Source: Lingula anatina
Lineage: Eukaryota; Animalia; Brachiopoda
DNA: 64,000 nucleotides
NCBI GenBank assembly: GCA_051362555.1
Contig: CM120646.1
Span: 15,128,001-15,192,000, forward strand
Reading direction: 5' to 3'
The translations under genes were made by a program, and so were the position numbers. How positions within the stretch are numbered: the first letter of the stretch is position 1; every line of letters begins with the position of its first letter. The notes under the pieces were generated by a model, which searched no databases, had not been told where the DNA came from, and was given only the letters and a program-made list of their open reading frames with translations. Below are positions 1 through 61,840 of the stretch, piece by piece.

Positions 1-2998
<2,998 letters not shown>

Positions 2999-12204: not shown

Positions 12205-12251
12205 TCACATGTACATGGGGTAATCGGTCATAATTGTTTTGTTGATTTCTC
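12205..12251 (-). CDS. Possible terminal coding exon of the channel-FN3 gene (GEINKTIMTDYPMYM*)
   Basis: CCTTAG acceptor in phase 1 followed by a short open frame to TGA. No homology support. Confidence 0.3.
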
Positions 12252-13232
12252 CTAAGGATCAATGCAAAGATATGGCTGACACAAAATATGTATAAACAAT
12301 GGCTTTTTCACTTTTCCCTATAATATCTGACACCCTGGTAGAGGGTAGCTCCCCTTTGTCTGTTTGCATTCAAGGCGGTAGTGATCCACAATACCCGCAG
12401 GCTGTTCCCACTCTATGGCCGATTCTACTGCTGGAATACCCACAAGTTTCACAGCAGAGTCCCAGGTTGATTAAAATCTTTAGGGATATATGTTAAAGTT
12501 AAAGACCCTAGGACTCTATAAAGTCAGAAAGTGTTCCCAAAACAGGCTTATATCTTTTCCAGTCTCTTCTCCCCCTGCCGCTAACCGTCCTGACCATTCT
12601 TCATGAATCTGCAGTAGTTGAAAAGTGCAAATAGAATGTTATAATGTCTGGATTACTAATCCAGTCATTTTTGATCGTTGTTGCAAGGTTGAGGCTCCGG
12701 AGTATGAAGCGTACGTAGATATTTTAATATTTTAAAGAACAATCATCTCACTTCTTTTAAACTTAAAATAAATGTACATTGTTACATGACATTACTTAAT
12801 ATGATTATGATATAACTGGAATCTTACAGTATGTAAAAAAAGTACCATACCTGTTGTTGCCGACCAGTGTGTCTTGTCGCTGGTTTTATCTCCGCTCACC
12901 AGTTCAACATAACCTTCAATATGTGTGTTGGGATTCAGTGGAGATATCAGCAACTGCTGGGGTTCTCTCGTAGATACATGTTTTGTTATTTTCTGAGTAG
13001 AGCCAGGTAGACAATATGGGACTACTGCTTCGGTCACATCTGGTTCATCCTCCTTTCTACTCCATTTAAGTCTGATTGAATCTGGTGCAGTATCAATATT
13101 GCCCATCGACGGCCGTGAAGGAACTAGGTTGAAAAAGTGTGAATTGCGAATTTATTACTTGAAATGAAATTTAATGTCTCACATCAAGCTGTGTTTCCAT
13201 AGTTTATACAAAAATTATAAAGGTAACTGATG

Positions 13233-13296
<64 letters not shown>

Positions 13297-15904
13297 CATC
13301 AGTCAAAACCTATTATGAGACAATTAAGTACGAATTGAAATGGACACAAGCATATATGTGCAATTACAAATAACGAATATTAAAAATAATAAGCTGATGC
13401 AGGCTAAACCTTATATTATGCATTACAGGTATAAACCTGTTCCGATTTCGATACACGCACGCACGCGCGCGCACACACAAACACACATACTCTCCGCCAT
13501 GCGTTACCTGTATAGAACGTTTTCCTATCGCCACCTTGGCTTACGCGCCCTTCTACACTGGACTTTACTTCCGCGACGTACTTGGTCCCTTGATTAAGGT
13601 TAATAATTGATCCCGTGACTGCAGGATATTGAACCGTGGTCTTTCGCTTTGCTGATGGGTTGTTAGCACGCCAAAATACGATATCATACCTCTTGACCTT
13701 TCCCTCAACAGGCGGTCTCCAGGACACGTCGGCAAAGGTGGAAAACCCTTGCACTTGCACATTACTTACAGCAGGTGGTTCTGAAAAAAATTATGACAAG
13801 TGCATGTTGGCAGTAAGTCCTGCGTAAATACTCAATAAGCCAGTGAAAACAGGGCTACAGCAACCAGAAAGGAGATTCAACGGATGTATTAATTGCGTCT
13901 TCATAGTTATTTTTTAAAATAATTAAAATTAAAATGAACAATATTAATTAAAATGAACAATATTATTCAGAGATAATTGAGTCGTAATAGATTTATTTGA
14001 AATGGCTGTTTAACTTAACTTTTATAATCGTAACAGAAATTGCCAGGACTATGCACATACACAACCTGCAACAATGTTAACCACAAGGTTTTTTTCCCTT
14101 TTTTTAAACACTTAATGTACAATCCTGGGCTAATAACTAGTCAAGATAAAACAAGCGTAATCTGAACAAAACCACGGGTTCCTCTTGCTACCATTCTATC
14201 ATTACCAAACAGTACAGAATGCTTGACAATAAGTTATTTACCTGTACTAAACAACGCCTCCTTGAAATCGTTATTCCTCGTTTCTTGAAAGACAGCCTTT
14301 ACTTGTACCTTGTACTGTGACCCTGGAGTTAAAGGCTTAAGTATTGTTTCTAAGGCTTTAGAAGACGCTGTCAGGCAGGGTTCAGGTCTGCGAGCGTTCA
14401 CTTCCCAACAATTGATTTCAAATGTGATGCCGTCATCATCCCTTTTATCTGGATAGGTCCAATAAATTTTTGCTATATTCGCTCCTGGGTTGACAGAAAT
14501 ACCCGTGGGAGGCAAAGGGGCTGTAAAATAACCAACAGGCAACGATAACAAAGTAACGATATCGCACAAATAAATGCTGTTCACTTATAACGTAAGAAGT
14601 ACTTTACGCAGTTGTATATCAATATGTAATAATAACACATCGCTTTTCATTCTACTAAATTGCTCGCACAACGCTTGCACTTTAAATATATCGAATTTAT
14701 GTCTATAATAGCTGTCAGGAAGTATACGGTATTTACTTTTGATTTTAGTCATTAATCTTTTATCTTCGCACGTCGGATATACTTTCATGTGAAAATAAAT
14801 ATTTCATTCATGTGAAAATAAGTATGTCTTGTAAATGAGCAAATATGTTCATAAGCTTGGAAGTTGAACCATACAAAATTTATTTATTACAAGCTGATAC
14901 ATACAGCGGCAAGTGGTGAGTAACAAATTCTACTTAAATAATTCACCGAACGATTTGCCAGTTGGCTAACAGAGAGGAAAATTCTCCAGCTTGTGCTAGA
15001 AATTACTTTCTATAAACATTTCTTGGTTTTTTAATCTATCTTGCTATATTGCACATTTTCTGCTTTTTTAAACAAATTTGATAGCTACAGCCTATAACAT
15101 TTTTCTATTTTCGTATCTATTCAAAGAGAGAGAGAAAGAGAGAGTTCAGTTTATATGTAACCAGGATATGTTGTGTGACTAAGACAGGGTTCCATATCCC
15201 TAGATGGATCTAACAGAATCGGTCCATCTCCACGGGGTCCCGCGCTAAATTGCTTTCAGCCCTGGAGGCTTAGACGTCTGGGATGCCCACTGAGGCTGCT
15301 AAACGATAGTTAAACACCCCCTATCAGCCTCAGCAGGCTTGACAGACATCTAAGCCGCCCAAGTTAATTGCAATTAAGCGAGAATCCCCTCGGAGATAGT
15401 TCGAGATAAATCGTTCGGTGAATTATTTTTAAACTTAAAATAAATGTACATTGTTACATGACATTACTTAATATGATTATGATATAACTGGAATCTTACA
15501 GTATGTAAAAAAAGTACCATACCTGTTGTTGCCGACCAGTGTGTCTTGTCGCTGGTTTTATCTCCGCTCACCAGTTCAACATAACCTTCAATATGTGTGT
15601 TGGGATTCAGTGGAGATATCAGCAACTGCTGGGGTTCTCTCGTAGATACATGTTTTGTTATTTTCTGAGTAGAGCCAGGTAGACAATATGTGACTACTGC
15701 TTCGGTCACATCTGGTTCATCCTCCTTTCTACTCCATTTAAGTCTGATTGAATCTGGTGCAGTATCAATATTGCCCATCGACGGCCGTGAAGGAACTAGG
15801 TTGAAAAAGTGTGAATTGCGAATTTATTACTTGAAATGAAATTTAATGTCTCACATCAAGCTGTGTTTCCATAGTTTATACAAAAATTATAAAGGTAACT
15901 GATG

Positions 15905-15964
<60 letters not shown>

Positions 15965-18900
15965 CATCAGTCAAAACCTATTATGAGACAATTAAGTACG
16001 AATTGAAATGGACACAAGCATATATGTGCAATTACAAATAACGAATATTAAAAATAATAAGCTGATGCAGGCTAAACCTTATATTATGCATTACAGGTAT
16101 AAACCTGTTCCGATTTCGATACACGCACGCACGCGCGCGCACACACAAACACACATATTCTCCGCCATGCGTTACCTGTATAGAACGTTTTCCTATCGCC
16201 ACCTTGGCTTACGCGCCCTTCTACACTGGACTTTACTTCCGCGACGTACTTGGTCCCTTGATTAAGGTTAATAATTGATCCCGTGACTGCAGGATATTGA
16301 ACCGTGGTCTTTCGCTTTGCTGATGGGTTGTTAGCACGCCAAAATACGATATCATACCTCTTGACCTTTCCCTCAACAGGCGGTCTCCAGGACACGTCGG
16401 CAAAGGTGGAAAACCCTTGCACTTGCACATTACTTACAGCAGGTGGTTCTGAAAAAAATTATGACAAGTGCATGTTGGCAGTAAGTCCTGCGTAAATACT
16501 CAATAAGCCAGTGAAAACAGGGCTACAGCAACCAGAAAGGAGATTCAACGGATGTATTAATTGCGTCTTCATAGTTATTTTAAAAATTAAAATGAACAAT
16601 ATTATTCAGAGATAATTGAGTCGTAATAGATTTATTTGAAATGGCTGTTTAATTTAACTTTTATAATCGTAACAGAAATTGCCAGGACTATGCACATACA
16701 CAACCTGCAACAATGTTAACCACAAGGTTTTTTTCCCTTTTTTTAAACACTTAATGTACAATCCTGGGCTAATAACTAGTCAAGATAAAACAAGCGTAAT
16801 CTGAACAAAACCACGGGTTCCTCTTGCTACCATTCTATCATTACCAAACAGTACAGAATGCTTGACAATAAGTTATTTACCTGTACTAAACAACGCCTCC
16901 TTGAAATCGTTATTCCTCGTTTCTTGAAAGACAGCCTTTACTTGTACCTTGTACTGTGACCCTGGAGTTAAAGGCTTAAGTATTGTTTCTAAGGCTTTAG
17001 AAGACGCTGTCAGGCAGGGTTCAGGTCTGCGAGCGTTCACTTCCCAACAATTGATTTCAAATGTGATGCCGTCATCATCCCTTTTATCTGGATAGGTCCA
17101 ATAAATTTTTGCTATATTCGCTCCTGGGTTGACAGAAATACCCGTGGGAGGCAAAGGGGCTGTAAAATAACCAACAGGCAACGATAACAAAGTAACGATA
17201 TCGCACAAATAAATGCTGTTCACTTATAACGTAAGAAGTACTTTACGCAGATGTATATCAATATGTCCCGCGCTAAATTGCTTTCAGCCCTGGAGGCTTA
17301 GACGTCTGGGATGCCCACTGAGGCTGCTAAACGATAGTTAAACACCCCCTATCAGCCTCAGCAGGCTTGACAGACATCTAAGCCGCCCAAGTTAATTGCA
17401 ATTAAGCGAGAATCCCCTCGGAGATAGTTCGATCCAAAGTTAGTACGATAGGGTCTGGGAATGGTCTGTAAAATACGGACGTGTGTGAAGATTATACCTG
17501 TATTTAAAATGTGAGACCTAATGGCACTTCTCTTTGATCCCTTTATCGTCATGACGTCCATACGGTACCAAGTAGCAGGACGAAGACGAGTGTAGGTTGT
17601 GCAGAGTTCTTCTGTTACTTTTTCTTTTGTTTCATTGGTTGTCAAGTTAGTTAGAGTGACAACCATGTGATCATACTGGCCATCTGGCCTCTCCCATTCG
17701 ATGTTGGCCGTTGAAGTAGATACTTGCGTGTGGAAAACCGTTGCAGGGGGTACAGGCTCTGCGAAAAATGTGGAATCAATTTTATATATTCCATCGGATG
17801 TAATGGCGTTCGGTTTGACTGTTATATACTGTACAATAATATACTGAACAAAAATATAAACGCACGAAACTAAAATGGTCAGTTGAAATGGATAATCATG
17901 AAATATGCCCAGGTTGATGGTTTATTTGTGAACTAATGGGTTTGTTTTGATCAATTATAGTGGTCTGGTTTCACTTGGCCGCTCCCCGTGAGTATACTCA
18001 AAGGTTCAGTTTTTACACCCATAAGACTAATGGAGCATGATGGAGTAGAGGTCAATCTGCAGGACCAATACACAGACACTCTCTACCGCCTAGGCAATAA
18101 AAGGACACACCAAAATGTGTATTTCTGCCACTTGTCAACATGCCACAGATGTCTGGAACCATGAGGGAGCATGCCATCAGCATGCTCAATGCTGGCTTGT
18201 CAGTAACAGAAGTTGCAGCATGCCTGAATGTGCATCATTCGTCTGGGAACACGCTTCAGAGACACTGGTAGCATTAGGAACCACCCTCATGCACCATGTC
18301 GCCCAACAAACACCTGTGGAATGTTCTGGATCTGAGTTTTCATGTTCCAGCTCTCTAGAATGTTCGCCAACTGCGAGTAGCACTCCAGGAGGAATGGGAT
18401 AATATCCCTTAGGCCTCTGTTGACAACTTACTGATGTCCCTGCGCCGCTGGTGTTCTGCTCTGCACAAATTTAATGGTGTCTGTGAACTCAAGATGTTGA
18501 CCCCCATGGTGTATTTGATGCCCTAACTCTTGGACTTTGCATTTTAACTTCCCCTAATGCTCTCAAAGTGATGTCTATTTGTCGATAAAAATATGCTGTT
18601 ATTTTTGGCTATATACTCTAGTTCCATATATATATCTGTCATTCTTTGCTAGTGGTTACAAAATGTTGAATTTGACCGAAAATTTCAAACTCTCTCTGGG
18701 AAGCTGTAATTTTGCGATGTGATAGCTACACCATCACAGTTTATCATTTCATAAAAAGGGAAACAGCAGCTGCCCTTTTTAGGGCACACAGGAGAGTTGA
18801 ACAGCTATACCCACCAAATCCAAGACGCGTTACCCTGGGTAATATATTTTGCACAAACTAATGAAAGTCTAATGGAATGTTTTCAGTTTTAGTTTAAATC

Positions 18901-21900
18901 ATAAGGGGTTGTTGTCTCAATGCTTCAAAACTGGTTTTGAAGAATTTAATCCACATTTCATAATTAATAAAAATGGTGAATATGTGGGTCATGGTAACGT
19001 TATTGACGCGGGTCGAAAACTTTTTATAATCATGTAAATAATAACAATATTTTTGCTATTATCCATACACACTTCATTCATGAGGGGCACACCACTTTCA
19101 CATGCTTTTAAAATGGAATTGACAAACACAGAGGAATAATTCACATATTTTATTTACTGCAACTCTGTCATATGGGACACACACTGAACAAAGTTGATCT
19201 AAAGAATGTTCCAGATTGTAGTTTTTTATCAGAACTATTATTTTTTTATTATTATTTTAACACAATAAAGTTCAGTTAAATACAAAATTTAACAAAATGA
19301 AGTTCAGTGTAACACAATGTTCATAATTATAACATTCTTCCTGACATATGTAGACCAATGGTGATATCTGTTCTGTGCTCACTAAGGCATCCACTCTTGG
19401 GATTCTGAAAAAAAATCACACAAAGAATCTGTTAACTCTGATAACGAACAATGGATAACCTAAGATCACAAATAGTTTATTGCTTATTCAAACAAAGTAC
19501 AGTGCATTATGAGTGGCAAACACGCATTACTGAGACACATTTTCTTCACCCATTTTCGGTGCTTCATTGCGTAACGTAAGTGTTGCTAGTAATCCATTAT
19601 TGCTGTTTTTACAGACGGTTAAATTTTAAACGCACGGAATACAGTGTAGCAGCTTAATTTAAGACAAAACTAAAAAAAAGTAATTCAATTTCGATGATTG
19701 AGTTTTCGAGAACAAGAGAACATGAATACGGTATCACCGCGTCACCATGTTCAATATGACCTTCAGTCCCCCATGTGAAACAGACGCAAAACGAAAGTTC
19801 AGACGAAGTCACCCTACTTATAGAATGGTAAAAATCAATCGGTACACAAATATGTTGAAACAATTGAAGAAAAATGAAACGAAACTCATTATTTCTCACC
19901 TTCATACAAAAAAGATCCCAATAAACAATCCTGTGACGGTTAAATCGAGGGAATTACACCTGTGCCCTGCATCCTATCTCGACAGCGTCATTGCGTTATG
20001 CGTTATCAGAATGGGCCACCCGCCAGTTTGAGCTGGTTTTTTTAGTGTGCAAAAGAAGCCATTCGTGTGTAAGACGTCATCAGTTAGTGAGTATGGAAGA
20101 AGATCGCTATCGATGTATAATTTTCACGCGGCATTTTAAAGTCGTCTGATAAAAATCGATCTCTGAAGTTTCAGCGTTGCGAACGTTATATTGGGACGCG
20201 GTGAAGAAAAATCGACCTTGCTGAGCAATAAATGTGAAATTCTTAAGAAAACTGATATTATCTTGGATTTCGTGACACAAACTAACCGACATACTACTTT
20301 GGACGATTGAACAGTTTTAATACGGAAAGATAGGATTAGATGAAATTTTCATCGGGGTGGGACACCGCATGTATCGTAAGTTAAGCTAATTTTGTGATCA
20401 TTTTTCAGTGACTTCAAATAAATTTTTATTTAAATAACAATTTGCACATTCTGTTTATTATATCTTCTTGCAGTAGATGTATTTCCTGCTTCAATAATCC
20501 ATTCAAACCCTAAACAAACTGTTCTTAAATAGAGGTAGGGTCAAAATTCCACAAAAAAGGACGCCATTTTGAGGGTTATTTCGATATATTTTCTGCTTTT
20601 TCTATTTTTTTGCTTTTATAACAACATCCTCCTTGCTCATGCAGCTTCTTTGATTTGTTATTGAAACATACACAACGATGTCATGAGAATTTGGTTGGCT
20701 ATCTAAATTTAAATAACATTCTCGTTATGGCCCCCCTGCAGTGCACCACTAGCAAAGAATGACTGATATATGAAAACAAATCTACATATTCTTTCGTGCG
20801 TTTATATTTTTGTTCAGTATATATTTATTTACTTAATGTTACGGCAAATGTGAGATGTTGATTTTAACATGCCTGTAATTTGTATTTCATGCTCGCCTTC
20901 TGTTTTTTAATTTTGTCACCTGTGTCACGTGGTGACAGTTTAGGTAGGATGTCTCTCAGAGCCGTCTCACTGATGTGGTAGTTGGAATTCAAACCACATG
21001 GCTTGAAGTTCAATCAAGTCATGCCTGGCCTCTTTTACAGAACCTATATTTCTCTTTGTCGATCGAGGATCATAATGCTTTTGTTATCAAAAGCAGTTTT
21101 GTAGACGGGTATAAACGGCAGAATAATTAGCGTCACCAAGACTTACCAGTGATAATATCATTCGGACCACTTGTGTTTGATTTGTCTCCACAGTGGAAAG
21201 TGACTTCTGATCTATATGAAGAGCCTGGTCGGACATTATGAATGCTGGCGGTAGTCGCAGATACATCAGTTATAACAGGCAACTGTGAAGTTTTTGTACT
21301 ATCTCCCTTAAGCCAATATTTTATCGTGATTTTGTCCACACCTGGTTCATTTACCTTGACCCATTTCACTGTCAATTCAGTCGCTGATGCTTCGTACCTA
21401 ACGGTTGGTTTTGATGGTACTGAAATCAAGGTTCAATATACACATGTGGCTACATTCAATCATTTGTGTATTAGGTGATTCGTGTTAGGACTAAAGCAAT
21501 AATGAGACGTTAAATCCAGTTTCATTTTCACATAGCATTAGCGAAACGTCGGCTTTTAACAGATTTATGAAATGTTGAACCTGGACTCAATTTAACAGAC
21601 ATAAGCACTGGGCACGTGTTTGAATTGTTTACTATTGTATAACGTTTTTATGTTTTCATAGCCCATAATAAGTTGTTTACCTGTATGTATCGCCAGCTTT
21701 ACTGGTTCACTCTTGACCTCAAAGTCCGTCTGGAAATAACTGACACTTTGCACCACCACATCATAAACACATCCAGGCTGCCATTCCATCAAACTCATCC
21801 TCTCGGTTGAAATCTTTGTTTTGCTTTCATGGTGCCTGACTTGGTATTCCTCATCCTCGCGGCATTTATAAAGAATTTTATAGCAATCCTTTCTACCATT

Positions 21901-24900
21901 ACATGTGAACTGTAATACAAGGGTTTTGCTGGATAGATCACTTTCAATGCTCGGTTTTTCAGGTTCTAGAAAAGATAAGGAAATAAATGACCATATATAC
22001 CCATGTTTACCATGTTTTATTACCAAAGAAATCTAAATAAGATGTTCATTGCAAGTTTAACAAATGTGACATACTTGTCGCAACTTCGATGGTATCGCCT
22101 ATCTCGTCTCTTGCACCATCTACCTCAGCGCATACTCTAAAGCGGTACTTCAATCCTGGCTGAAGGTCATCCAGTGTTTTCAAAAAACCTTTTACTATAT
22201 CCTTTTTTTCACCACCGGACCACCATCGTGCGATATAGCCCATGTCTTCATCTACTGGTTGGTGATATAATGCGTAGTGTTTCACTTTTCCGCCAGGAGG
22301 ATTCCAGTGAAGAAAGATTGAATTTGTTGTCACCACTAATCCTTCGTGTACAAATTCCGGGTTGCCAGGTGCTAGAAATTACATCAGACATTGTCCTTAT
22401 ATCAAAACTGAAGAAAACACAAGTATATGTGTGGATAAAATGTACATATCTTGACCTTTCTTCAATGTGTTAAGACTTGGACATAATAAGAGAAGGTTCC
22501 TTTTTATTTCCAAGGTTAAGACGAGGAAAGTGTGGCATACCCATCTGTCGTGAATATTTAGATAATGTCAAAGAAGAAAATATGTGACCCATTAACCTTT
22601 TCACTGAAAAACTGGTACTAACCTATCGTAATTTTTTTTGAAATCTCCTTGCTTGTTTTTTCATTGCTGACTGCCACAACACTGAAAACACAGGTTTCTC
22701 CCTTCTCAATAGTGTGCACGTTATATATGCAGGTCGTTGTGTGGAATGTTTTAATGTCAGCTCCCATTGCGACTTTGATGTCATATCTACCAATATCACC
22801 GTCTGGTTTTTCCCAGGTAAGTCTGTTGGATGACGAATCCCACATTAGACCGTGGACTGGTTCTGGATCTATGAAGAAAGAAAAACGGGGATGGGTACAT
22901 TACGTACTATGTTAGCCTCTATGAATGTAAAATTCCATCGTTTACACATTTCTGCCCATTGGTATGACGATAAAGATATGTTTTCAAGATGTTTAGTCCA
23001 ATCATTTATCCAGTGAACCCCGCAATTGCTCGTGTGGTTTTACAATGTTGCATAACTGACACCACAGTGGATCAACAGCAGGCGATCACTAGTTTACAAA
23101 GACGTGCAGCAAATCGCTACATTTAGAATAGAAAAAAAAAAATACAAAAAAAATGGAAAACTGGTTTTAGCTGTAGACAATAACGTGTGTCCAATTAGAA
23201 ACAAAATAAACCCGCAGTCATAATCTTGCTGATGAAATAGGTCCATTTGCAAAAGTAAATAAACAGATAAATAAAATAAATTTTAAAAAAGTCTTGCGTA
23301 CTTGTTGCTCCTGTGCAAAACACCTCTTTGCTTGTAGAGTGGCCTACTTTGTCTTTCCATCCAGTTACTTGCAGAGAGAATTCGTACTTTCTGCCAGGGA
23401 CTAACCCAGTAACTTTCAGACTTTGATCTTTAACCACCCTATCATTGTGGTATTCTTCGGAGGTTCCGAAACGACGATATTTCACCGTATATGACAAAGA
23501 ACCGGCTGTGATAGATTCCGGTGCATCCCACTTCAAATGTATCGAGCGTGTGGGTAATTCGCTTTGGATCTGTCGGAAATTTTTAGGACATGGAAGATCT
23601 GAAATTAAAATTAACGTCCATTTCCCTGCTATATAACAGTTCACTTAAAAAATTAAATATATATACATATGTGTGTACATAGTTTATTGTCCTGACTTAT
23701 TTATTCCAGAGAAACACCTAAAATACATCATGTCATACCAAAATATTATTATGGTTCTAGTTAACGTGTGTGCAATAATTCAGCTTTAATAATGTTAGTC
23801 AACCGCCATTGCTGTACATGGTTTTAAAACTTGTTTGAAGAAAAACTGTTCCTACCTGTGGCTTCCACAACCTGAGAAGGGTCGCCTCTTATGCCATTGC
23901 TTATAGCATACACTTTATAGTTATATAGTACACCAGGCGATATGTTATCAATGATACAATTTGGAGTACTTGTTTTTAGTAGTTGTCTTGTGGTTCGGTC
24001 CTCTCTTTCGTATTCTATTTCATATTCACTGACATTGCCTTCACTAGCACCCCAAGACAGAGAAATTGATTCTGCTGTAGTCGACTCTTCTTTTGTCACT
24101 TTCCCAGGTTTACCCGGCTCTGGATAAAAAAATAATATAAAACATCACTGATCCAATACAATATTCCAAATTACTATATGCATACTATACATGTTTATAT
24201 ACACATACGTGCCTGTGTATCGGAATATCTACAAAATAATAAAAATATTCAGTAGCCCCTGATTGAAAGTAAATTATATGTACATGTCAACATTAAAATA
24301 CAGTATAAATACTCCAGAATTACTATTACATTATGTCTCTCAAAATCACTGAGGGTAACTTTTATGTAAACATTGTGTTGTTTCATGCGATGTATACAAT
24401 ATACTAAAGGTAAAACAACAATGCTCACTTGTTGCCTGTGTCAGCTGTTGTGGCTGGCTAAGATAACCGTGAGTTATCGCAAAAATTCGGATTTCATAAT
24501 TTGTGCCAGGATCAAGCTTTTCTACATTGCACTTGCTTTGTACAGTTTCGATTTGTTCATATCTTGCATTGCGTGATTGTTCTTCATCGTAGTCGAGTAT
24601 TTCTAGATTTTCTTCTGACGTCGGCTCATCGCTGGCACTTCCCTGTAGAAGTTTTTTTGTCTGCGTTTCTGTATTACTGTCGTCTTGGCTGTCGGTGGAA
24701 GTTACTTGGACATTTCTATACATAATAGAATATTTATGGACAGCTCCTGCAGCTGGCATCCACTGGAAGTATAAATCTTTGGTACCTGCTACAATGGTGC
24801 CTGGTACAATGGTGCCGGGCATTGCGGGGGCTGTCAAGTAGGAAAATTATGAATGCGTTAAGAGGAATTAAACTCTGAACATATACTTAAAAGTGCACTG

Positions 24901-27900
24901 TACTTTACCTTTACCATGAGGTTAACTAACAACAGAACTTTTTAGGATACTATTTTAATGAGCCACGTGTAATAAGGTAAAACTAAAAAAGAATCGCACT
25001 GTCCTGAGGAGACTATGAAGAATAGTGCCCTGTGAGAGGAAATGGGATCCCGACGTGAAGCGGATTTTTTTCACTGATCACTATTCTTCATAGACCCCGA
25101 GGTACTTTGCACTATTTGCTTTACTCTACCGGTTGTCCTCCAAGGTACCGTATGAAGAAAGGTAACTTTCACCTTTGAATAGCTAAACTTACATATCTAG
25201 ATCTACATCTACAAATCTACTTCCCTTCAAATCATCATACATGTCATACACGCCCCATATCCCATTGTTACGAAATGCCGCAACCAGTCGTTCAAGGAAA
25301 TCTTTCTAAACAGTCCGTGATAACTGATCAATTAGAGCTTTAGAATTAACTTCAGCTAATAGTCCACGGTAATTGTGCATGGTCATATGACCAATAGATC
25401 CCTTGTACAAACCACAAGATCATTATTTGAAATAGCCCGTGGTGACTGACCAATCAGTAGCCTGTAAGTCTACACGAGATATAATAATCCACAATATTAA
25501 CAAGACATTAATAATTACAGATACAACTCAGATCTGACATAGTGAATATGACTGAAAAACTGAATGATTTACGTTATCGCCACGTGATGTTACAGGCGAG
25601 GTCGATGCGGGGCAATTTAATTTTCACCTGAATTAAGGATGAAAACAACGAATTACCGGAGAATTTATTACAGAATTTCCTCAAAAAAGAGATGCGGTTT
25701 AACGAGGGCATAAACTTTGATCGAGTGCACAGGATAGGAAAGATAATAAATGGTAGACATCGACCGATAGTAGCAAAATTTTCGTCCTTTCGAGATCGGG
25801 AGATGGCGAGGAAAGCCGCGCAGCGCACTTTAGTTGGCAAACCCTTTGTAGTAAACGAACAATTTCCGAAGGAGATCAATGAAAAGAGAAAGCTTTTGAT
25901 GCCCCATTTGAGAGCAGCAAAAAGGGGTGGAAAGAAGGCTGTTTTGGTGGTGGATAAATTATTCAATGACGATCGTGAGTTTATCCCCCCGACATGCATC
26001 AGAGCACGGCACGTGGAACTAGTACTACTCAGCAAGATGTGATTCATGCCACGGGTCAACAACGCGCTCGCAGCCTGTCAGACCGTGCCGAGAGAGGAAG
26101 ACGAGGGAGACCTCGCTAGGCGATCTTGCAGTACACCCGTCACATGGAATATTAATAGAGCTAACAACTTGAAATGGTAGAAATTATCAGAGTAAACTGT
26201 CAAGGTATGGGGAGTTTTGAGAAGATAAAAGACGTCTTTCAATATTTACGAAACTTGAAATGTAATATCATTTGTTTACAGGATACACATTTTACTTATA
26301 AAAAAGAAGTTCAGATAAGGAATGAATCAGTTCTTATACTTCAAACGCTCGAGGCGTAGCAATTCTACTACAAAATAACATAAATTTTAAATTGCTACAG
26401 GAATTCAAGGACGAATCCGGGAATAAACTTATTCTGTAATTTGACGTTGATGATAAAATAGTAACATTTGCAAATATCTATGGTCCTAACACTGAAAGCC
26501 CCCCATTCTTTGAAAACCTTCTCAAAAAGATCGATGAAATGGACAGTGAATTCCAAATAATCTGTGGAGATTTTAACCTGGTTCTGAATCCAGATACTGA
26601 TTACTATAACTATTCACGGATAAATAACCCAAAGGCAAGATTAAGTGTTTTAAATATGATAAAAGAAAACGGCTATGTAGACCCATATAGAGAACTATGG
26701 CAATGTGTCTAATATCACTTGGCGAAAAACAGGCCTACCCAACTACCAGACTCGGCACCTAAGGATCCTGAATTAACCGGTATATCGGACAACGCTACCC
26801 GTTTTCAAGGTGTGTGTCAGATCGCATTTCGGAGTATCATACCCCAGAAATAATTTTGTAGCACGACTGCGGGCTCATCCACGCTCGGCTGAACAACCTT
26901 TAACTGTACTCTTTACTTTAGAGTACTCTATTTTATTGTCTCTATGGGGATATATGGGGACTTTACGACATTCGGTTTGAATGTTTTAACCACTTTTGAT
27001 AGGGCTTTTTTGCATTGTATTAGATTAATGTGGTAGTCTAAGGTGCATCTAGGTGGCTTTCAAATTTATGCACCCGGTTTTAAAATCATATAGCGATTTT
27101 ACGACAATCGTTTACTATCCAATCAAGGTGACAGCCGAGCATGCCAGGGCTCATCCTGTCGGTGTTCTGGCTGATACTCCGAAATGCGATCTGACACACA
27201 CCTTGAAAACTTCAAGTAAAATTTGACAGTTTTAAGAGAGGAAGAGGACTTTGGAAATTTAATAATTCCCTCCTATATGACATGACCTATGTCGAAAAAA
27301 TTAATGAATCCATACGAGATTTTAAAAAAGAATATTGCATTCCTATATATAATCTTGAAAATATTGGCAACATTCCTGACCAGGAATTGCAGTTTATGGT
27401 GAATGATCAGATGTTTCTAGAAATTTTGCTTTTACGTTTAAGAGGCACGACTATTTCGTATGCATGTTTTAAAAAGAAAAAAAATACAAGAGGTAGAAAA
27501 AGGGCTTATGAAAGAAATAGAACAATTAACAGAAGATTATGAAAATTGTGATGCCCGTCTTCAACTAGAATTAGAAAGGAAAAAACAACAGTTAGTTGAG
27601 ATTAGAAGTGCAAGGTTAAAAGGTAGTATTATTAGATCGCGCGGGAAATGGTTGACTGAGGGGGAAAAACCAACAAAATATTTTTTTAGCTTTGAAAAAA
27701 GTTTTACAGAAAAAATTATTCCCCGACTATAGGTTGGTGATATATTACTGAACAGAATGAAATCTTAAAAGAAACAAAAAAGTTTTACGAAAAATTGTAC
27801 TCAGAAAATACACAGTGTGCTGATATTGACTGGCAAACAAATTTAAAAGATTTTAATGTACCAAAACTGACTACAGATGAGAGGGAAAGCCTAGAAGGCC

Positions 27901-32938: not shown

Positions 32939-32969
<31 letters not shown>

Positions 32970-41900: not shown

Positions 41901-43547
41901 GTGGGGCTGCATCAGCATCCATGGCTTGGGCGAATTGATAGTGGTTAATGGAAACATGAATCACTAGAAATATATCGATGTTTTGGAGTCAGGCTTGCTA
42001 CCATCTATTACTAACATGTTTGGTGACAGGAATTATCCATTTGTTCACCAGGATGACAATGCTCCTTGTCACAGGCCCAGAGCAGTTGATGATTGGTTTG
42101 ACCAACAGGACATTCGCAGGGTGGTGTGGCCTGCCCAGAGTCCGGATGCAAACATAATAGAAAATTTGTGGAATGATATGCCAAAACTTTTTACAAATGT
42201 CCGTCTATCCAGTAGAGAAACTCTGTTATATTCAGTGTTTCATGCTTGGGCCAGCATAAGCCCTGAACGCATCAGACAATTATATGAATCCTTGCTTCGT
42301 AGACTGGCACCTATTATTAGGTCAAGTGGCTATGCCACTAAGTACTAATTTTGGACTTGAAACTGCATATTTTGGTAGAATGTATATTTTGTTCTCATTT
42401 TGTGATTTTTTTGTGAAATTTGATGTTAATAAAATGATACCAGGAGCATATCATTCCACAGTCATTTATCTCCCCCATAGTATTGGGTCAGTAGGGGTGA
42501 CACTTCTTTTGTCCAGTGTGTGTATGTCAGACCTAAATATGAGACTTAATCAATAAAAAAAATAATAACTGTCTCGTATAGTAAATCTAGCTCGTGTTTG
42601 GATGAATGCACTTCTGCAATGCCACCGTCTTTATTCCCTGAGGAATAATATTATATTATATTAAGAAAAGGACGAAAACATGTCAGTAGTCTTTATACTG
42701 TTATGAAACTGTAATAATCACTACCGTACGTGCTTCAATCATCCCTTCTAAACAAATTTTACATCAAAATCACTTTGCGTCACTGATTATTAAATTTTAG
42801 CAGTCTAACAACATAGCCAAACACCAAACGGTTTTTTGTGCAACAAATCCCAAACTTATGCTTTTGTAGTGGTCTAAAAATTGTTGGACCAATCCTGTCT
42901 GAGGCTTTGGAGTAGGTCAAACTCACCTCCCCTTCACCGTCCGGCGGACGTCGTGGCACTGGGTCATTGTTACCTCCCTGTCATTGTAAAGAAAGCATTT
43001 ACATAAAATATAATAAATGTTCACACTGTCACTGGTCATTAATTATCGAATATTTTAAACGAAGTATGTTTCCCAAACATGACATCATATTGCAGTCAAA
43101 GATTCATTGTTATGTATCTGTCAATAGTTCCATATCTTTAAAAATCCTAAAACTAGTCCAAACTAGTAATTTGTACCAGTATACTATTTATTTATATACA
43201 TACTGGAAACAGCTAAAATCTGATGCAGGCCAGCTATCTATTGGAATTACAACGTTTTTCCTGATTTGCCCTTTCGGGATTGATTACTAGAAATGACAGA
43301 CTTCTTACATTCCTTAAAAGTCTCTCATTCACCAGAATAATGCATGAATTATTCATTACACATGTTTCTTACCTCAAATGCGGCGTCATGCCACCCTTCT
43401 ATATCTAAAAAAACCTATAAAGCATAATAAATAGATTGGCAATTTGAAAAATTTTATACGTTAACCATTCAATGAAAAAATCATGAATCATGATTTTATT
43501 AGTTAAAAACAACTTAATGATTTTCTGAATAGTGGGGTATCCCTTTG

Positions 43548-43619
<72 letters not shown>

Positions 43620-58600: not shown

Positions 58601-61600
58601 ATATCAGGTATTAATTTAAGCAGCAATAATACCGCAGAGTTAACAACGACACAGCATAGGGTGTTATCAGTTATGCAACAAAATTCCATGCATTACTTGC
58701 AGTGGCAGTGTTCTCCTCAACCTATCGTGCACCGCAGGTTTTGATTTTCAGTGTCATCGAAATTGTATATTATTGTTAGTTTGACCTATGTATATGCTTT
58801 TCATATAATATTGTTTGGAAAATAACTGACTAATTTAATTATGCTTTTGCAACATGAAATTATCATTAACTTTGCCGGTTCACGTGTACACAGTACCTTG
58901 CCACGCTCGGCTGTCACCTTGATTGGATAGTAAACGATTGTCGTAAAATTGCTAAATGATATTAAAATCGGGTACATAAACTTAAAAACCACCTAGGACA
59001 ACCTAAGACTGCCACATTAATCCAATACAATGCAAAAATAAACTATAACAAGTGGTTAAAGCCTTCAAAACGAATGTCGTAAAGTCCCCATATACCTCCA
59101 TAGAGACAATAAAATAGAATGAGCTTCTGAAACAAAACTCAGCCAACTTAAACATAATAATCGAAATAAAATACTGCCGGGCATCGGAGCGGCCTAAAAC
59201 TTGGCATGCTTACCGCAAATACTGCAGGCTACATCATCCCGTCGCTCGTTTGTAAATTCCGTGCATGGCATACGCACAATCAAACCGTATATCCAAATTG
59301 CACCTCTGATGTTTGAATTGGTCCTCTACACTATTCAAATCCTGAAGTGACGTAACCGCAGAGGTCGCATTGTCCAATGGCATGGCTTCTTTTTCGTAAT
59401 GGTAGGTTAGAGAGGACCAATTCAAACATCAGAGGTGCAATTTGGATATACGGTTTGATTGTGCGTATGCCATGCACGGAATTTACAAACGAGCGACGGG
59501 ATGATGTAGCCTGCAGTATTTGCGGTAAGCATGCCAAGTTTTAGGCCGCTCCGATGCCCGGCAGTATTTTATTTCGATTATTATGTTTAAGTTGGCTGAG
59601 TTTTGTTTCAGAAGCTCATTCTATTTTATTGTCTCTATGGAGGTATATGGGGACTTTACGACATTCGTTTTGAAGGCTTTAACCACTTGTTATAGTTTAT
59701 TTTTACATTGTATTGGATTAATGTGGCAGTCTTAGGTTGTCCTAGGTGGTTTTTAAGTTTATGTACCCGATTTTAATATCATTTAGCGATTTTACGACAA
59801 TCGTTTACTATCCAATCAAGGTGACAGCCGAGCGTGTACCTTGCTATCAGTGCTGCTCTTTTCTCCCCAACTCGCCACTGACAGGCTAACCACATCGTTC
59901 CAAAACAACGTTGGTATGATCCTTTACTTTTGGTGTAGGCAGTTTCGCCCCGGGGACATCGTCTTCGGTTAAAAACAACGTATCGTTTTCACCCATCTTT
60001 GCATTGCTCCTGTACAAAATGTCCGCTTGACGCCCGCCCAAGGGAAAAAATCGTAGCACGTTGGTAGTTACGAAAGACCTGTGACGTGTAACGCGCGCAA
60101 GGTTATTGCGTGGGATGTGAGATTCTGCGCACAATTTGCACGCAAACAGCCCTTAAGAGCCCGTGCGGCCGGTTGTGACAGAGGCTAAAATTAGTTCTTA
60201 GGGAAGTTGACTCTTTTTTTTTTTAATTTTGCTTTATATATTTTTGCCAGAAGTTTTGTTTTGTTTTAGCACCAGACTTTTTTGGGACAAAGGACGACGG
60301 AAACCCCTCCGAGTTTAGAATAAAACGAAAAAATTGAAGTGATCGTGGCTTTTAGGAAATGGTATAGCACCATTGTGTCTGCCCATAATGACCCCAATGA
60401 CCTGACCACAGTTTCACAAAAAAAAAAAAAAAAAAAAAAACCAATTCCCTGGATTAGCCGACTAGGATTTACACGAGAGTGCTGTTACACTGCTCTTAAT
60501 AGGGTAATCTTGGTAATTAAATTCTTTGTCAAGGAATTTGACTTTAGTTTTTTAGTGAAACCGGGGCCAGAGAGAGGGAAGGAAACGGGTTTTAACGACG
60601 CCCGGCAACTTCGCTAGACTAAACTTTTTCCATAGAATTTAAGGTTTGCATTTATTATTATTATTTTTTTAATTTTTACTTTCTTCTTACGAAAACATTT
60701 ACTATAAACAAGAATGAAACCAAACATACTTGTTGGACCTAGATTTCAATTCAATTAAAAAAAAGAAAAAAAAAGAAAATGAGCTCGGACAAACCTTACT
60801 GTTAATTATACGGAATGGTGAAACAGAAACAGAAATGATACTGTATGAAACCGGCTGTGTGTGAACCCCTTAGACACAAGGGACTTAATATTCTAACACT
60901 TTGTCGTGTGACAGATAAATAATTGATGGAATAATCAGATTAGCACTTTTACCTGTTCCTGGGGCTTGTTGGTCGACTTCTGTCTGTCAGTAATTTTGTC
61001 TGCGTTTTCGTCCAGACCGTATGGCTTTCTGCCTTCTTTGAGGTACCACACAATACCAAATACTAATATAGCTATGTACAGAGCAGAAGTTATGGCGTAA
61101 ATGGCATTTAGAATAATGAACCATGTCCCAAGGGTTCGTGTACAAACGTAGTCAGCTCTTACATTTGCCAATGTGCAGTGAAACAACCCCTGGTGCACTG
61201 GTGGCCAACCCGCAAAAAACAAACTGAACACTAGTGCCAAAACAGAAAACACCAGTTGGACTACACTCTTAGCCAGGTAAAACCTGCCAAGAAAGCGTTT
61301 CTTTTCTAGACACTGTCTATATTGCCACAGTTCTTCATGTTGTTTCTTTAAGTCAGCGTAGATGTCAGGGGCTGGGGTGGCTCCAGGATCTGATTCCATC
61401 CGCTGTATTTCTTTGTTCATTTCATTTGCATTAATTGTCCTATCTAACTTTGATTTGAACTCTTCAATTTTAGATTTGATGATCGGTAAACGGAACCAGT
61501 GTTCACTGATTAGAGTTAGGATAAACGCCAGAGCAAACAGAATTCCCGAGAAACTCTTTGAAGGAAATCCAAGTTGGGAACTGCATTGTGCGTTAACAAA

Positions 61601-61840
61601 ATCAGCAGTCCGTGTGGACTGCAAAGATGGAGCGTTTGTATTGAGAGCTTTTAGGTCGATGTTTCCATTTGCTGAGCACCTGACTGTTACATTTACGTGG
61701 AGTGCCATCGCTATGACGCCCACTAATAGCAAAAATGGTCCAATCCACTGTATTACCCTGTCCCACCAACACCGCAGGTCGTCTGTGGGGGGGCAGTGCT
61801 GAACCTTTCTTTGGAAGTAAGTGTCGATTTGTGATATCAT
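12205..61840 (-). CDS. Predicted LRRC8/pannexin-like large-pore channel fused to a C-terminal array of ~25 fibronectin type III domains (~2600-2700 aa; multi-exon model, 3' end uncertain)
   Basis: 4-TM exon 60953-61840 (phase-0 donor) joins linker exon 39843-39963 (phase 0 to 1), then a series of phase 1-1 FN3 exons from 39557 to 12851. All are on the same strand with canonical GT-AG sites, and I saw no signal peptide or start codon for a separate FN3 gene. Confidence 0.72.
12851..14520 (-). CDS. FN3 exons 23-25 (14242-14520, 13508-13780, 12851-13123), duplicate of exons 20-22
   Basis: Near-identical to 15523-17159, with one visible coding change (VVPYC vs VVTYC). Confidence 0.8.
15523..17159 (-). 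CDS. FN3 exons 20-22 (16881-17159, 16176-16448, 15523-15795)
   Basis: KIYWTYP..PLTPGSQY; DVSWRPP..NLNQGTKY; SIRLKW..PLNPNT; all GT-AG, phase 1-1. Confidence 0.85.
17498..17758 (-). CDS. FN3 exon 19
   Basis: STANIEWERPDG..RLRPATWYRMDV; phase 1-1. Confidence 0.85.
17842..20819 (+). mobile_element. Tc1/mariner remnant with nested insertion(s)
   Basis: TIRs TACTGAACAAAAATATAAACGCACGAAA / TTTCGTGCGTTTATATTTTTGTTCAGTA with TA flanks. Possible decayed transposase sequence at ~18115-18480. Confidence 0.75.
21147..21419 (-). CDS. FN3 exon 18
   Basis: TELTVKW..NVRPGSSY; GTAAGT donor, phase 1-1. Confidence 0.85.
21681..21965 (-). CDS. FN3 exon 17
   Basis: PEKP..YKILY..WQPGCVYDVVV; phase 1-1. Confidence 0.8.
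22075..22371 (-). CDS. FN3 exon 16
   Basis: TTNSIFLHWNPP..DLQPGLKYRFRV; phase 1-1. Confidence 0.85.
22623..22868 (-). CDS. FN3 exon 15
   Basis: LTWEKPDGDIGRY..FSVVAVS; phase 1-1. Confidence 0.82.
23302..23598 (-). CDS. FN3 exon 14
   Basis: SIHLKWDAP..YTVKY..GLVPGRKYEF; phase 1-1. Confidence 0.85.
23856..24119 (-). CDS. FN3 exon 13
   Basis: SISLSW..VSEYEIEY..NISPGVLYNYKV; phase 1-1. Confidence 0.85.
24429..24830 (-). CDS. FN3 exon 12, with a ~45-aa acidic Ser/Thr-rich loop insertion
   Basis: LYFQWMP..YSIMY-[STDSQDDSNTETQ...DEPTSEENLEILDYDEEQ]-KLDPGTNYEIRI; GTGAGC donor. Confidence 0.82.
26801..27210. mobile_element. MITE (~40-bp TIRs) nested in the LINE, itself carrying a CACGCTCGGC-family element (26880-27143)
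   Basis: GTTTTCAAGGTGTGTGTCAGATCGCATTTCGGAGTATCA is mirrored at 27172-27210. The inner segment matches 58902-59836. Confidence 0.75.
29586..29810. mobile_element. Harbinger-like MITE family X (copy at 62350-62762; related copies at 15187-15403 and 17267-17460)
   Basis: Shared core TAGATCGACCTAACTCCCTGGGGGTTCACG.TAAATTGCAGTCAGCCG; this copy interrupts the LINE. Confidence 0.65.
30524..30808 (-). CDS. FN3 exon 11
   Basis: PSAPTNF..TSVKLKWEMP..GLGPGTEY; phase 1-1. Confidence 0.85.
30984..31256 (-). CDS. FN3 exon 10
   Basis: TTSVSISWDP..NLLPATKYDVKV; GTAAGT donor, phase 1-1. Confidence 0.85.
31479..31745 (-). CDS. FN3 exon 9
   Basis: VCWVRPRG..VTPGTTYDL; GTATGT donor, phase 1-1. Confidence 0.82.
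31995..32267 (-). CDS. FN3 exon 8
   Basis: TTLTLEWE..IEGY..NLTPGMMY; phase 1-1. Confidence 0.85.
32333..32936. mobile_element. MITE with ~120-bp TIRs flanked by (TA)n
   Basis: CACAGGCCCAGCCCCAATCTAGGCATATTCTAAATCCACTAA... is mirrored by ...TTAGTGGATTTAGAATATGCCTGGATTGGGGCTGGGCTTGTG. Confidence 0.8.
33003..33272 (-). CDS. FN3 exon 7
   Basis: NTITLWWDLPQG..DLQPSTHYTGWI; phase 1-1. Confidence 0.85.
33643..33909 (-). CDS. FN3 exon 6
   Basis: FTLKWDQPSGRVDGY..IVPGTDYTIEI; GTAAGT donor, phase 1-1. Confidence 0.85.
34112..34369 (-). CDS. FN3 exon 5
   Basis: LSWEPPPG..KLEPGEKFFVEI; GT-AG, phase 1-1. Confidence 0.85.
36082..36342 (-). CDS. FN3 exon 4
   Basis: TSIDVTWAKP..YLQPGTKYTLSV; GT-AG, phase 1-1. 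Confidence 0.85.
36504..37209 (-). CDS. FN3 domain 3, in two exons (~36959-37209 and 36504-36534)
   Basis: TTSIPIRWVKPKGNVDRY..GLTPGTKYTVIV..NK|GTATGT (phase 0), then ATACAG|GKQVQADIYT|GTAAGT (phase 1). Confidence 0.8.
38592..38853 (-). CDS. FN3 exon 2, first part (second part appears split at 38253-38259 / 37512-37569 by an insertion)
   Basis: EPPEP...VKDLLPGTLHG|GTGGGT. The remainder INTDASHTESNFIEITVLT|GTGAGT lies at 37512-37569. Confidence 0.6.
39228..39557 (-). CDS. FN3 exon 1
   Basis: VNLEWNGP..YSGFRI..LECGSVYQVRIFT; TTTTAG acceptor, GTTAGT donor, phase 1-1. Confidence 0.8.
39843..39963 (-). CDS. LRRC8-type intracellular linker exon of the channel gene
   Basis: TTAG|EVDKFHRDAAFMVRLWERNKSEEVEHFTRMMSRPLKEMLE G|GTTTGT. 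Aligns without gaps to the recalled LRRC8A [25 protein letters not shown]. Not in the ORF track. Confidence 0.8.
40085..40424. mobile_element. Kolobok-like MITE
   Basis: TIR AGGGATAATAACTCTTCGT / ACGAAGAGTTATTATCCCT; TTAA on the left flank, TTTA on the right. Confidence 0.6.
41137..42522 (+). mobile_element. Full-length Tc1-like transposon (1386 bp) with a pseudogenised DDE transposase
   Basis: TIRs CACACACTGGACAAAAGAAGTGTCACCCC / GGGGTGACACTTCTTTTGTCCAGTGTGTG with TA TSD. GRPRK, FSDECRF, MVWGCI, QDDNAPCH and SPDANIIENLW motifs split by stops and frameshifts. Confidence 0.93.
43552..43617. repeat. (TA)n microsatellite; others at 3543, 4222, 11891, 13234, 15906 and 32937, and (GA)n at 4870
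   Basis: Seen directly. Confidence 0.95.
46138..46802 (-). mobile_element. PIF/Harbinger internal-deletion derivative
   Basis: TIRs GGGCCGGTTTC.C.AAGCAGTAG / CTACTGCTTTGTGAAACCGGCCC with CAG TSD. Minus-strand RFHDRQNLLEYSHDDAIYKRLRL resembles a Harbinger transposase N-terminus. Confidence 0.75.
47295..48240 (+). repeat. ~165-bp tandem repeat (about 6 copies, decaying 3') inside a non-autonomous DNA element
   Basis: AATGTCACAGAAACATG...GCAACTAGTCTCAAGGTCACTGGAGGTCAAGGTCATGACC at ~47299, 47464 and 47630; degenerate at ~47795, 47960 and 48119. Confidence 0.8.
49746..52286. mobile_element. Fold-back DNA element with ~440-bp inverted arms (49746-50183 / 51846-52286); right arm continues to ~52626
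   Basis: Near-perfect reverse-complement match of the arms. Confidence 0.8.
53885..55682 (+). mobile_element. Ginger-type DNA transposon (deleted), nested in element Y
   Basis: TIRs TGTGAACGGA / TCCGTTCACA with a 4-bp TSD CCGG. Integrase C-terminal GPY/F module (VGTKVL..RKGGK..PWLGPYVV..GSY.L...VNRANLKVY) at ~55066-55272, after a TTTACAG acceptor. Confidence 0.75.
54703..54802 (+). repeat. 30-bp minisatellite, 3 copies (CCGGGGACTACCATTTCTAGGATTTTAGGT)
   Basis: Direct repeats are visible and explain the PGPKILEMVV repeat ORF. Confidence 0.85.
55735..55952. mobile_element. Palindromic Harbinger-like MITE family Z (partial copies at 55956-56060 and 63348-63512)
   Basis: TIRs GGCTCCGTATCTCGAAAGG / CCTTTCGAGATACGGAGCC with CAG TSD. 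Confidence 0.8.
56600..60010 (-). pseudogene. Decayed transposon-associated gene with a SAP-like N-terminus and SWIM zinc finger (possibly a YqaJ/Kolobok-type accessory protein)
   Basis: LTEDDVPGAKL...TNVVLER near 59890-59996 and KGVILASM..KYTVTV..VKAARCHC at 57880-57990. Interrupted by a palindromic MITE. Confidence 0.4.
58902..59836. mobile_element. 935-bp palindromic MITE, P-element/hAT-like
   Basis: CACGCTCGGCTGTCACC...GGTGACAGCCGAGCGTG with ~425-bp near-identical arms. 8-bp TSD TACCTTGC at 58894-58901 and 59837-59844. Confidence 0.9.
60953..61840 (-). CDS. Pannexin-like/LRRC8-type transmembrane channel domain exon (296 aa, 4 TM)
   Basis: Compared with LRRC8A from memory: MISQIDTYF..LRCWWDRV (MIPVTELRYF..LKPWWDVF); ADFVNAQC (YVDAVC); HWFRLPIIKSKIEEF (FWFKFPRTSSKLEHF); two Cys in each extracellular loop (VRCS, AQCS, FHCT, YVCT); WYLKEGRKPY (WMLRRSLKKY). 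Ends CAG|GTAAAA. Confidence 0.88.

Follow-up and report, generated by a model that had tools for sequence, protein, structure and literature searches.

The C-terminal domain of LRRC8/VRAC subunits consists of 15–17 leucine-rich repeats (LRRs). Motion of these repeats acts on the VRAC gate via the intracellular subdomain, according to one report (PMC13586329). The standard account, as given in PMC9399500 (citing Abascal and Zardoya 2012), is that LRRC8 arose at the chordates and that a cnidarian copy was obtained by horizontal transfer. Here, a window of 64,000 nt from Lingula anatina (GCA_051362555.1, contig CM120646.1, positions 15,128,001–15,192,000) was analyzed. A gene on its minus strand (12205–61840; all features below lie on this strand) is predicted from the sequence to join an LRRC8-like four-helix pore to about 24 fibronectin type III (FN3) domains in place of the LRR tail. 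An LRRC8-type pore exon is followed by small exons, a linker exon and 25 FN3 modules. Every modelled exon has AG/GT ends and the phases are compatible. No LRR-encoding exon was seen in the window, where a motif scan gave three isolated matches, none of them in modelled exons. The observation of an earlier note on this DNA is confirmed in part: its outline holds, and its splice path and the integrity of the gene are corrected below. Its interpretation is partly supported: the results back an LRRC8-like pore that carries FN3 domains on its cytosolic side, and they do not back the proposed spring.

Two L. anatina RefSeq models share the architecture and the module order of this gene. XP_013407927.1 (P0002; 2457 aa, named "tenascin-X") contains the whole pore, the spacer, the linker and 21 FN3 domains, and XP_013399668.1 (P0001; 1425 aa, named "tenascin-N-like") contains TM4, the spacer, the linker and 14 FN3 domains. 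Both are predicted models and look imperfect: P0001 lacks TM1–3 and P0002 ends in the wrong frame, its last 35 residues being the first exon of the block of modules 14–22 read in another frame. The P0002 pore matched Pannexin_like with 16.7 bits, which is under the Pfam cut-off. FN3-type families and Pannexin_like were the only Pfam families found in the two proteins; LRR, EGF and fibrinogen domains were absent. Individual FN3 modules are 65–94% identical to those of the gene studied here, which differs in lacking modules 5–12 and in extending 12 modules beyond the P0002 model. Both models switch sequence at the same Gln as the donor of our pore exon and, although located on different scaffolds, show an identical join of parts. 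Since both carry pore sequence, then the linker, then an FN3 chain, as the gene studied here does, the fusion is very probably real at the family level, the models themselves being predictions.

Coding exon 1 (60953–61840) comprises 888 nt, is open from the ATG to a phase-0 CAG|GTAAAA donor and encodes an LRRC8/pannexin-like pore of 296 amino acids, 84% identical to residues 1–298 of P0002. The donor scored 8.7 compared to a background 95th percentile of 6.0. The exon matched Pfam Pannexin_like with 34.8 bits (cut-off 25; E 1.3e-8), and all 26 PDB matches at E ≤ 10 were LRRC8 subunits. Thus, the LRRC8-type pore exon with a phase-0 donor claimed in the earlier note was recovered, including the profile match on which the claim depended. 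The gene gave no match to Innexin (PF00876) at E ≤ 0.05; the Atlas neighbours at 0.92–0.93 were Innexin and Pannexin_like clusters. LRRC8A was the best Foldseek match of an AlphaFold model of the pore (E 8.6e-11). In VIA, the model matched LRRC8A with Z 17.1 (rmsd 5.1, 258 aligned) and pannexin-2 with Z 14.6 (rmsd 5.0, 243 aligned). PANX1 and PANX2 belong to the same large-pore fold class, but their best profile match has an E of 1.9e-05 versus 3.6e-39 for LRRC8A (the profile includes a more LRRC8-like row), and they have no folded repeat tail.

The Lingula pore shares with LRRC8A-E/VRAC (PDB 6g8z, 8dr8) the four-TM fold, the Trp before TM1, FVN..C, W..P and loop Cys; W26, FVN..C, W..P and four loop Cys did not vary across an alignment of 13 sequences. 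Putative post-TM4 linker helices, assigned here by motif, and a large C-terminal cytosolic domain would be further likenesses. In contrast, the Lingula family has 14–25 FN3 domains and no LRRs, an acidic spacer of 3–4 small exons between TM4 and linker, and a likely protostome host. The pore differs in that its first loop is shorter on both the extracellular and the intracellular side, in having four loop Cys where LRRC8A has six, and in a Thr at the LRRC8 filter position Arg103. The pore is about 20% identical to LRRC8A. Four hydrophobic segments were found in the pore exon and no further one anywhere in the gene model. Because no hydrophobic segment follows the four TM helices, the FN3 chain would lie in the cytosol. 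The earlier claim that a chain of FN3 domains replaces the LRRs in the cytosol is thus backed by fold, by hydropathy and by two Lingula models whose parts are arranged alike.

The FN3 chain finds its closest solved structures in fibronectin and tenascin-R, which are extracellular proteins. It resembles tenascin and fibronectin in its tandem FN3 domains, but it follows TM4, with EGF and fibrinogen domains missing from the Pfam matches and a 4-TM domain rather than a signal peptide at the N-terminus. Together with the identity of about 20% to LRRC8A and the loss of the filter Arg, these extracellular matches would suit a real fusion whose pore does not conduct and, as an oligomer, holds an FN3 scaffold to the membrane, or whose topology has changed so that the chain points outward. 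However, the four TM helices and the loop Cys are retained, the N-terminal helix is kept in the pore model, and sequons are not enriched (9 observed versus 12.5 ± 3.2 in shuffled sequences). We regard a non-conducting or inverted pore as quite unlikely.

The direct splice from the pore exon to the linker exon (60953>39963) assumed in the earlier note is probably wrong. The supposed 21-kb intron contains three small phase-0 exons which match both Lingula models, and the first intron (60953 to 43414) measures 17.5 kb. Exon A (43373–43414) encodes 14 residues of acidic spacer and scored 66, with 34 for the next candidate exon. Exon B (42927–42977; 17 aa) is 81% identical to P0002 and 62% to P0001, and exon D (40544–40594; 17 aa) was assigned by matches to the Lingula models. 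Comparison with the relatives and inspection of splice sites indicated that a spacer exon C (42578–42637, end approximate), present in P0002, absent from P0001 and without a donor here, is probably dead. The 3–4 small exons give an acidic spacer of 48–70 aa between TM4 and linker.

The linker exon (39843–39963; 40 aa, phase 0 to 1) encodes putative LRRC8-type post-TM4 linker helices and is 85% identical to P0002. When 127,774 six-frame windows were scored with a post-TM4 motif built from nine non-Lingula LRRC8-like proteins, this exon ranked second overall and first of the windows without a stop. By itself the exon matched nothing in the PDB by phmmer. The linker was not found by hmmsearch either, where an HMM of octocoral-type proteins matched the pore only, and the structure model gives it no confident docking (pLDDT < 50 beyond residue 324). 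The motif rank and the observed phases agree with the earlier assignment of this exon as a phase-0 linker opening in phase 1 into FN3.

Gene prediction could in principle have merged two adjacent genes, one for a pore without a tail and one for a secreted protein of tenascin type. Phase 1-1 FN3 exons are typical of matrix proteins, and the length of the first intron would fit such a merger. Reading past the pore-exon donor leads to a stop at 60935, 18 nt beyond, with polyA-like hexamers downstream, and the RNA data list no exon-exon joint, including any across the first intron. Against this, no exon ahead of the FN3 modules encodes a segment resembling a signal peptide, the very exon that opens into FN3 carries the LRRC8-like motif, and two models on different scaffolds show the same join. 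A merger of two genes is therefore very unlikely.

Downstream of the linker, 25 FN3 modules extend from 39557 to 12851. Pfam fn3 was matched at E ≤ 0.05 by 22 of them, the curated cut-off was passed by 19, and three gave no match; the 25 domains counted by our own HMM are circular, since it was built from the same exons. The earlier count of about 25 tandem FN3 domains without LRRs holds. Module 1 (39228–39557; Pfam, junction translation) has a last base that yields a TAG on splicing to 38853, or a TAC on splicing to 37209. Module 2 (37512–38853) is damaged according to alignment to relatives and splice sites: its exon 38853–38592 is followed by a split second part with about 600 extra bases inside, the left piece having no donor and the right piece a poor acceptor. 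Modules 3 and 4 (36082–37209; exons 37209–36959, 36594–36504 and 36342–36082) were assigned by Pfam, phases and identity. Comparison with P0002 revealed decayed remnants of its modules 5 and 12 (34980–35858, approximate), about 740 bases apart, with modules 6–11 missing between them. Modules 5–13 (23856–34369), one phase 1-1 exon each, align collinearly with P0002 modules 13–21 at 65–87% identity. Modules 14–22 (15523–23598; Pfam, phases), likewise one phase 1-1 exon each, lie past the end of the P0002 model. Modules 23–25 (12851–14520) are a near-identical tandem copy of modules 20–22: a single nucleotide differs over 825 exon bases, and the block as a whole is 98% identical. The last FN3 remnant (12205–12515) proved to be frameshifted by translation and splice sites, both candidate acceptors reaching a stop within 2 codons; the end at 12205, formerly taken as an exon, is not intact.

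The array comprises about 30 distinct modules in order, mostly 25–40% alike, and is old. Turnover affects whole modules: eight were lost and three duplicated in this copy, and three were duplicated in P0001. Cys residues are scattered and often odd in number, which would suit a position on the cytosolic side. The substitution pattern is near neutral (mean BLOSUM −0.23 versus −0.42 ± 0.13). The reading frame has nevertheless been kept: the aligned FN3 exons contain no stop at 18% amino-acid divergence, where neutral simulation gave a mean of 10 and a minimum of 2 (200 runs, all change on one lineage).

This copy of the gene is partly damaged, with at least five lesions. Plain splicing of 39228 to 38853 (T|AG) creates a stop at residue 495, where P0002 has Lys. 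In the earlier spliced model, which lacks the small exons, the same junction places the stop at residue 447; that model is consequently not an open frame, and it overlooked the exon skipping that this copy needs to stay open. Without module 2 an open frame of 2651 residues results. Alternative donors or acceptors within modules 1 and 2 that avoid the stop were rejected (scores −10.9 and −1.2), as was skipping of exon 38853 alone, which shifts the frame. Skipping of module 2 is not assured, because its first exon retains a strong acceptor (9.9). The long form would require skipping of module 2 (or of module 1); failing that, the expected outcome is a pore of 494 aa carrying a single FN3 domain, or a decayed message. 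The chances that this copy makes the long protein (about 2650 aa, 24 FN3 domains) appear even.

RNA depth was available from four runs for the region from the small exons to FN3 module 1 (>39200), the pore exon lying outside. Support amounted to about 3 reads per exon in one run (X7), and exonic reads were absent from the other three. In X7, depth was found in 6 of 8 exon-holding bins versus 0 of 7 non-repeat intron bins, and the base totals fit the exon lengths; exon B had a depth of 0.94 and the depth at the linker exon was exon-confined. Exons A (the pore-side junction) and D showed no RNA depth. The few exonic reads may derive from paralogs at 88% likeness. This very low depth, the junction stop, the interrupted module 2, the dead exon C, the two decayed exons and the frameshifted last exon would all be explained by a real family of which the present copy is either a young pseudogene or reduced to the 494-aa pore with one FN3 domain. 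However, every lesion sits in a unit that can be skipped without a frameshift, and one skip removes the two lesions around module 2. Stops are absent from the pore exon and from 24 modules, and a single-base assembly error or an allele could explain the junction stop. We consider loss of the long form in this copy a serious possibility, though not the probable one.

As a whole, the best explanation, which we would hold at even chances, is that the gene belongs to a small Lingula-type family of large-pore channels positioned and gated via proteins that bind the FN3 chain. Pore, linker and FN3 exons would form one transcript, as in the two RefSeq models, and by homology the subunits would assemble into a hexamer or heptamer. 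As FN3 module 1 starts directly after the linker, where the LRRs of LRRC8 start, binding or crowding along the chain would influence the gate via the intracellular subdomain. The chain might then be a variable arm for docking or sensing, not a calibrated spring; given the fusion, regulation by such an arm is about as probable as its opposite. The acidic spacer that separates TM4 from the linker, the linker's lack of confident docking in the model, the Thr at the Arg103 position and the extracellular nature of the closest chain structures count against this explanation. The earlier note had instead proposed a tethered mechano- or volume-sensing channel or a scaffold; in such a tethered sensor, the FN3 chain would be anchored to the cytoskeleton and pull the gate open upon swelling or stretch. 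In titin and fibronectin, arrays of FN3 domains carry load, and the present array, about 30 distinct modules in order, is old. The chain also occupies the place of the LRRs, which have been proposed as VRAC mechanosensors (PMC12182595). Nevertheless, no result supports the spring: no anchor domain was recognized at the chain terminus, modules are gained and lost freely in whole blocks, and there is little substitution constraint. NOMPC/TRPN, in analogy only, is likewise a channel with a long cytosolic repeat chain, but its pore is unrelated and its chain is a stiff ankyrin helix which opens the channel by compression, not stretch (PMC8186909). A flexible FN3 string presumably cannot push. The tethered sensor is thus unlikely.

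Outside Lingula no protein combining pore and FN3 was found in searches yielding 1 match among 1556 candidates (519–2000 aa) and 2 among 3928 (1351–4300 aa); among 9 matches from 7986 candidates (813–2320 aa), P0001 alone carried FN3. The Atlas contained no such cluster among clusters of 50 or more. This absence is weak evidence, because the same searches failed to return vertebrate LRRC8. One of six matches in a further search (P0006) was dropped as an unrelated Ig/PKD-repeat protein (E 5e-4). Eight relatives of octocoral type (P0007–P0014), one of which clusters with a Paramuricea clavata protein, likewise have a tail that is not of vertebrate type behind a Pannexin_like pore and a linker; they differ in keeping a short LRR and ending in a caspase domain, and are 21–24% identical to the Lingula pore region. 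With their LRR and caspase domains they argue that the invertebrate LRRC8 pore swaps its tail. Together with the diverged lophotrochozoan pore they point to a modular LRRC8 family that is older than the standard account allows. It is conceivable, if doubtful, that brachiopods possess a new class of large-pore channels with six or seven cytosolic arms of 25–30 FN3 domains (about 100 nm each), gated by force or ligand capture, and that with the octocoral caspase fusions the LRRC8 pore is an ancient pre-chordate module with swapped sensor or effector tails. A natural LRRC8-type pore with another tail offers a chimera or deletion test of how the cytosolic domain opens VRAC.

Neither the pore-FN3 architecture nor invertebrate LRRC8-like or coral LRRC8-caspase proteins were found in the literature searched, which did not extend to subscription journals and InterPro architectures, and the text and one supplement of the Lingula genome paper do not mention such proteins. 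The claim that this is not a described family thus stands after these searches, except that RefSeq already contains its proteins, named as tenascins. Judged by their domains, these labels appear to be a mislabelling given for FN3 alone, which has kept the Lingula pore-FN3 proteins hidden in databases.

The pore exon (61840-60953, minus strand) consists of an 888-nt frame which extends from an ATG to a CAG/GTAAAA donor; read-through of this donor leads to a stop after 18 nt. The exon matched the Pfam family Pannexin_like with an E-value of 1.3e-8, and 26 of 26 sequence matches in the PDB were LRRC8 subunits (best E-value 5e-5). This confirmed the LRRC8-like pore exon with a phase-0 donor postulated in the earlier note. 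A structure was predicted for residues 1-409 of the closest relative, the predicted Lingula anatina protein XP_013407927.1 (P0002), from an alignment of 13 rows. The model had a mean pLDDT of 57, with values of 60-90 in the helices. Using this model, Foldseek returned only LRRC8 structures in its top rows (E-value 8.6e-11), and an independent aligner placed LRRC8A first (Z 17.1, rmsd 5.1, 258 aligned), followed by a chain of the dystrophin complex (Z 15.1) and pannexin-2 (Z 14.6). Because helical bundles reach high scores by chance in the independent aligner, the sequence evidence was weighted equally to the fold ranking.

A protein search of the full library revealed P0002 (2457 aa, 84% identity across the entire pore exon) and XP_013399668.1 (P0001, 1425 aa). 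Both are RefSeq models of Lingula anatina which carry tenascin names, and a profile made in this analysis counted 21 and 14 FN3 domains in them, respectively. The identity between the window and the Lingula models is 65-94%, which suggests a lingulid source for the window. Their alignment to the window continues through the linker exon (39963-39843) into the FN3 exons in collinear order. This supports the linker and FN3 order of the postulated gene; its single intron 60953>39963, however, is probably interrupted by three small phase-0 exons. Among stop-free stretches of the window, the linker scores highest against the post-TM4 motif derived from unrelated LRRC8-like proteins, and it is also the top match inside both P0002 and P0001. 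Therefore, what is probably a part of the pore domain leads straight into FN3.

Four RNA runs were aligned to 39200-43470, with 6-25% of each run read. Exonic depth was zero in three of them. The fourth, X7, exhibited a depth of 0.5-2.4 in six of the eight bins with a model exon and in none of seven non-repeat intron bins. The 14 repeat bins had depth in every run, and the bin at the probably dead spacer exon C (about 42578-42637, minus strand) had a depth of 0.2. The X7 base totals of 74 plus 51 compare with the 121-nt linker, 104 with two passes over a 51-nt exon, and 74 with the 72-nt start of module 1. Since these totals fit the exon sizes, they suggest spliced reads, one possibly across the proposed junction 39843>39557. 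The calculation involves about three reads, to which paralogs may contribute; no exon joint was recorded, and the pore-side junction had no depth.

The chain comprises 25 FN3 modules (39557 to 12851), 22 of which matched Pfam fn3 and 19 passed the cut-off. The majority are encoded by one phase 1-1 exon each with good splice sites. Neither an LRR exon in the window nor a fifth hydrophobic segment was found. The claim of about 25 FN3 domains following the pore, with neither LRRs nor a further TM, held in outline. The final three modules are near copies of the preceding three (one difference in 825 exon bases); they arose by a recent duplication or are an artefact of the assembly. Near 12515-12205 (minus strand) there is a frameshifted FN3 remnant. 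In module 12 (24430-24830, minus strand), about 45 aa form an acidic insert, also present in P0002 (76% identity), which is a possible regulatory or cleavage loop. The nearest solved structures of the chain are fibronectin and tenascin. Despite this, the lack of sequon enrichment and of a fixed cysteine pairing pattern fits a cytosolic chain, without proving it.

LRRC8 termini are located on the cytosolic side (PMC9399500), and LRR motion reaches the gate via the intracellular subdomain (PMC13586329). FN3 module 1 would start at the position where the LRRs start in LRRC8. The modules are for the most part only 25-40% alike, which argues for an old array; blocks were lost and duplicated separately in each copy, and substitutions are near neutral in kind. 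On these grounds we consider the chain a variable arm for binding or sensing on a putative oligomeric large-pore channel; this is the leading reading, with about even chances of being correct. The same gain and loss of blocks and near-neutral substitutions place the mechano- or volume-sensing tether of the earlier note, in which the chain transmits force, behind it as unlikely. A pore serving as a non-conducting anchor ranks lower than the arm as well and appears slightly less probable still.

The copy in the window is damaged. Across the junction 39228>38853, residue 495 becomes a TAG stop (Lys in P0002). About 600 bases split the second part of module 2, which runs into a stop, and spacer exon C lacks a donor. 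P0002 modules 5 and 12 are broken remnants in the window, and modules 6-11 are absent. Skipping module 2 removes both local lesions and leaves 2651 open codons; skipping module 1 leaves 2656. The remaining exons contain no stops at 18% amino-acid divergence, versus an average of 10 in a neutral simulation, or about half if the change is shared between lineages. So the frame was maintained through most of the copy's history, and any death is recent.

Just downstream of the gene, 7663-11753 contains rearranged LTR-retrotransposon remains (integrase, DUF5641) in which stretches of 200-440 nt recur exactly, in direct and inverted orientation, and misassembly is possible there. A broken LINE-type element (25600-30400, plus strand, RVT_1) lies in the intron that separates module 11 from module 12. 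A Tc1/mariner-type element is present at 41059-42631 (plus strand); each of the four runs had RNA reads from related copies, and some of these reads skipped about 1 kb. RNA depth was very high over the short repeat at 40058-40486, reaching about 4700 in X7; the reads came from many diverged copies, and the repeat is probably a MITE common in UTRs. On the 3' side the gene is bounded by exons at 496-2400 (minus strand), which presumably resemble the RING finger protein RNF32; a Pfam search with them gave no clear match.

Lacking LRRs, the predicted protein is not an LRRC8 in the strict sense, yet it is built like an LRRC8 subunit; it is not a tenascin either. In the literature searched no description of a pore+FN3 protein was found. 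The family is probably real and, so far, lineage-restricted. A profile search further revealed eight proteins of about 920 aa (P0007-P0014) which combine a Pannexin_like pore, a short LRR and a caspase domain, an architecture checked by Pfam in four and by precomputed annotation in all eight. They are apparently octocoral in origin, and one clusters with a Paramuricea clavata protein. No description of such a caspase fusion was found in the literature searched. The joining of a pore to a caspase brings to mind caspase-gated pannexin-1, and these proteins may be cell-death or immune channels. P0003 and P0005, unnamed short Pannexin_like proteins without LRR, may be fragments; P0005 carries a low-complexity tail after TM4 which resembles the Lingula spacer.
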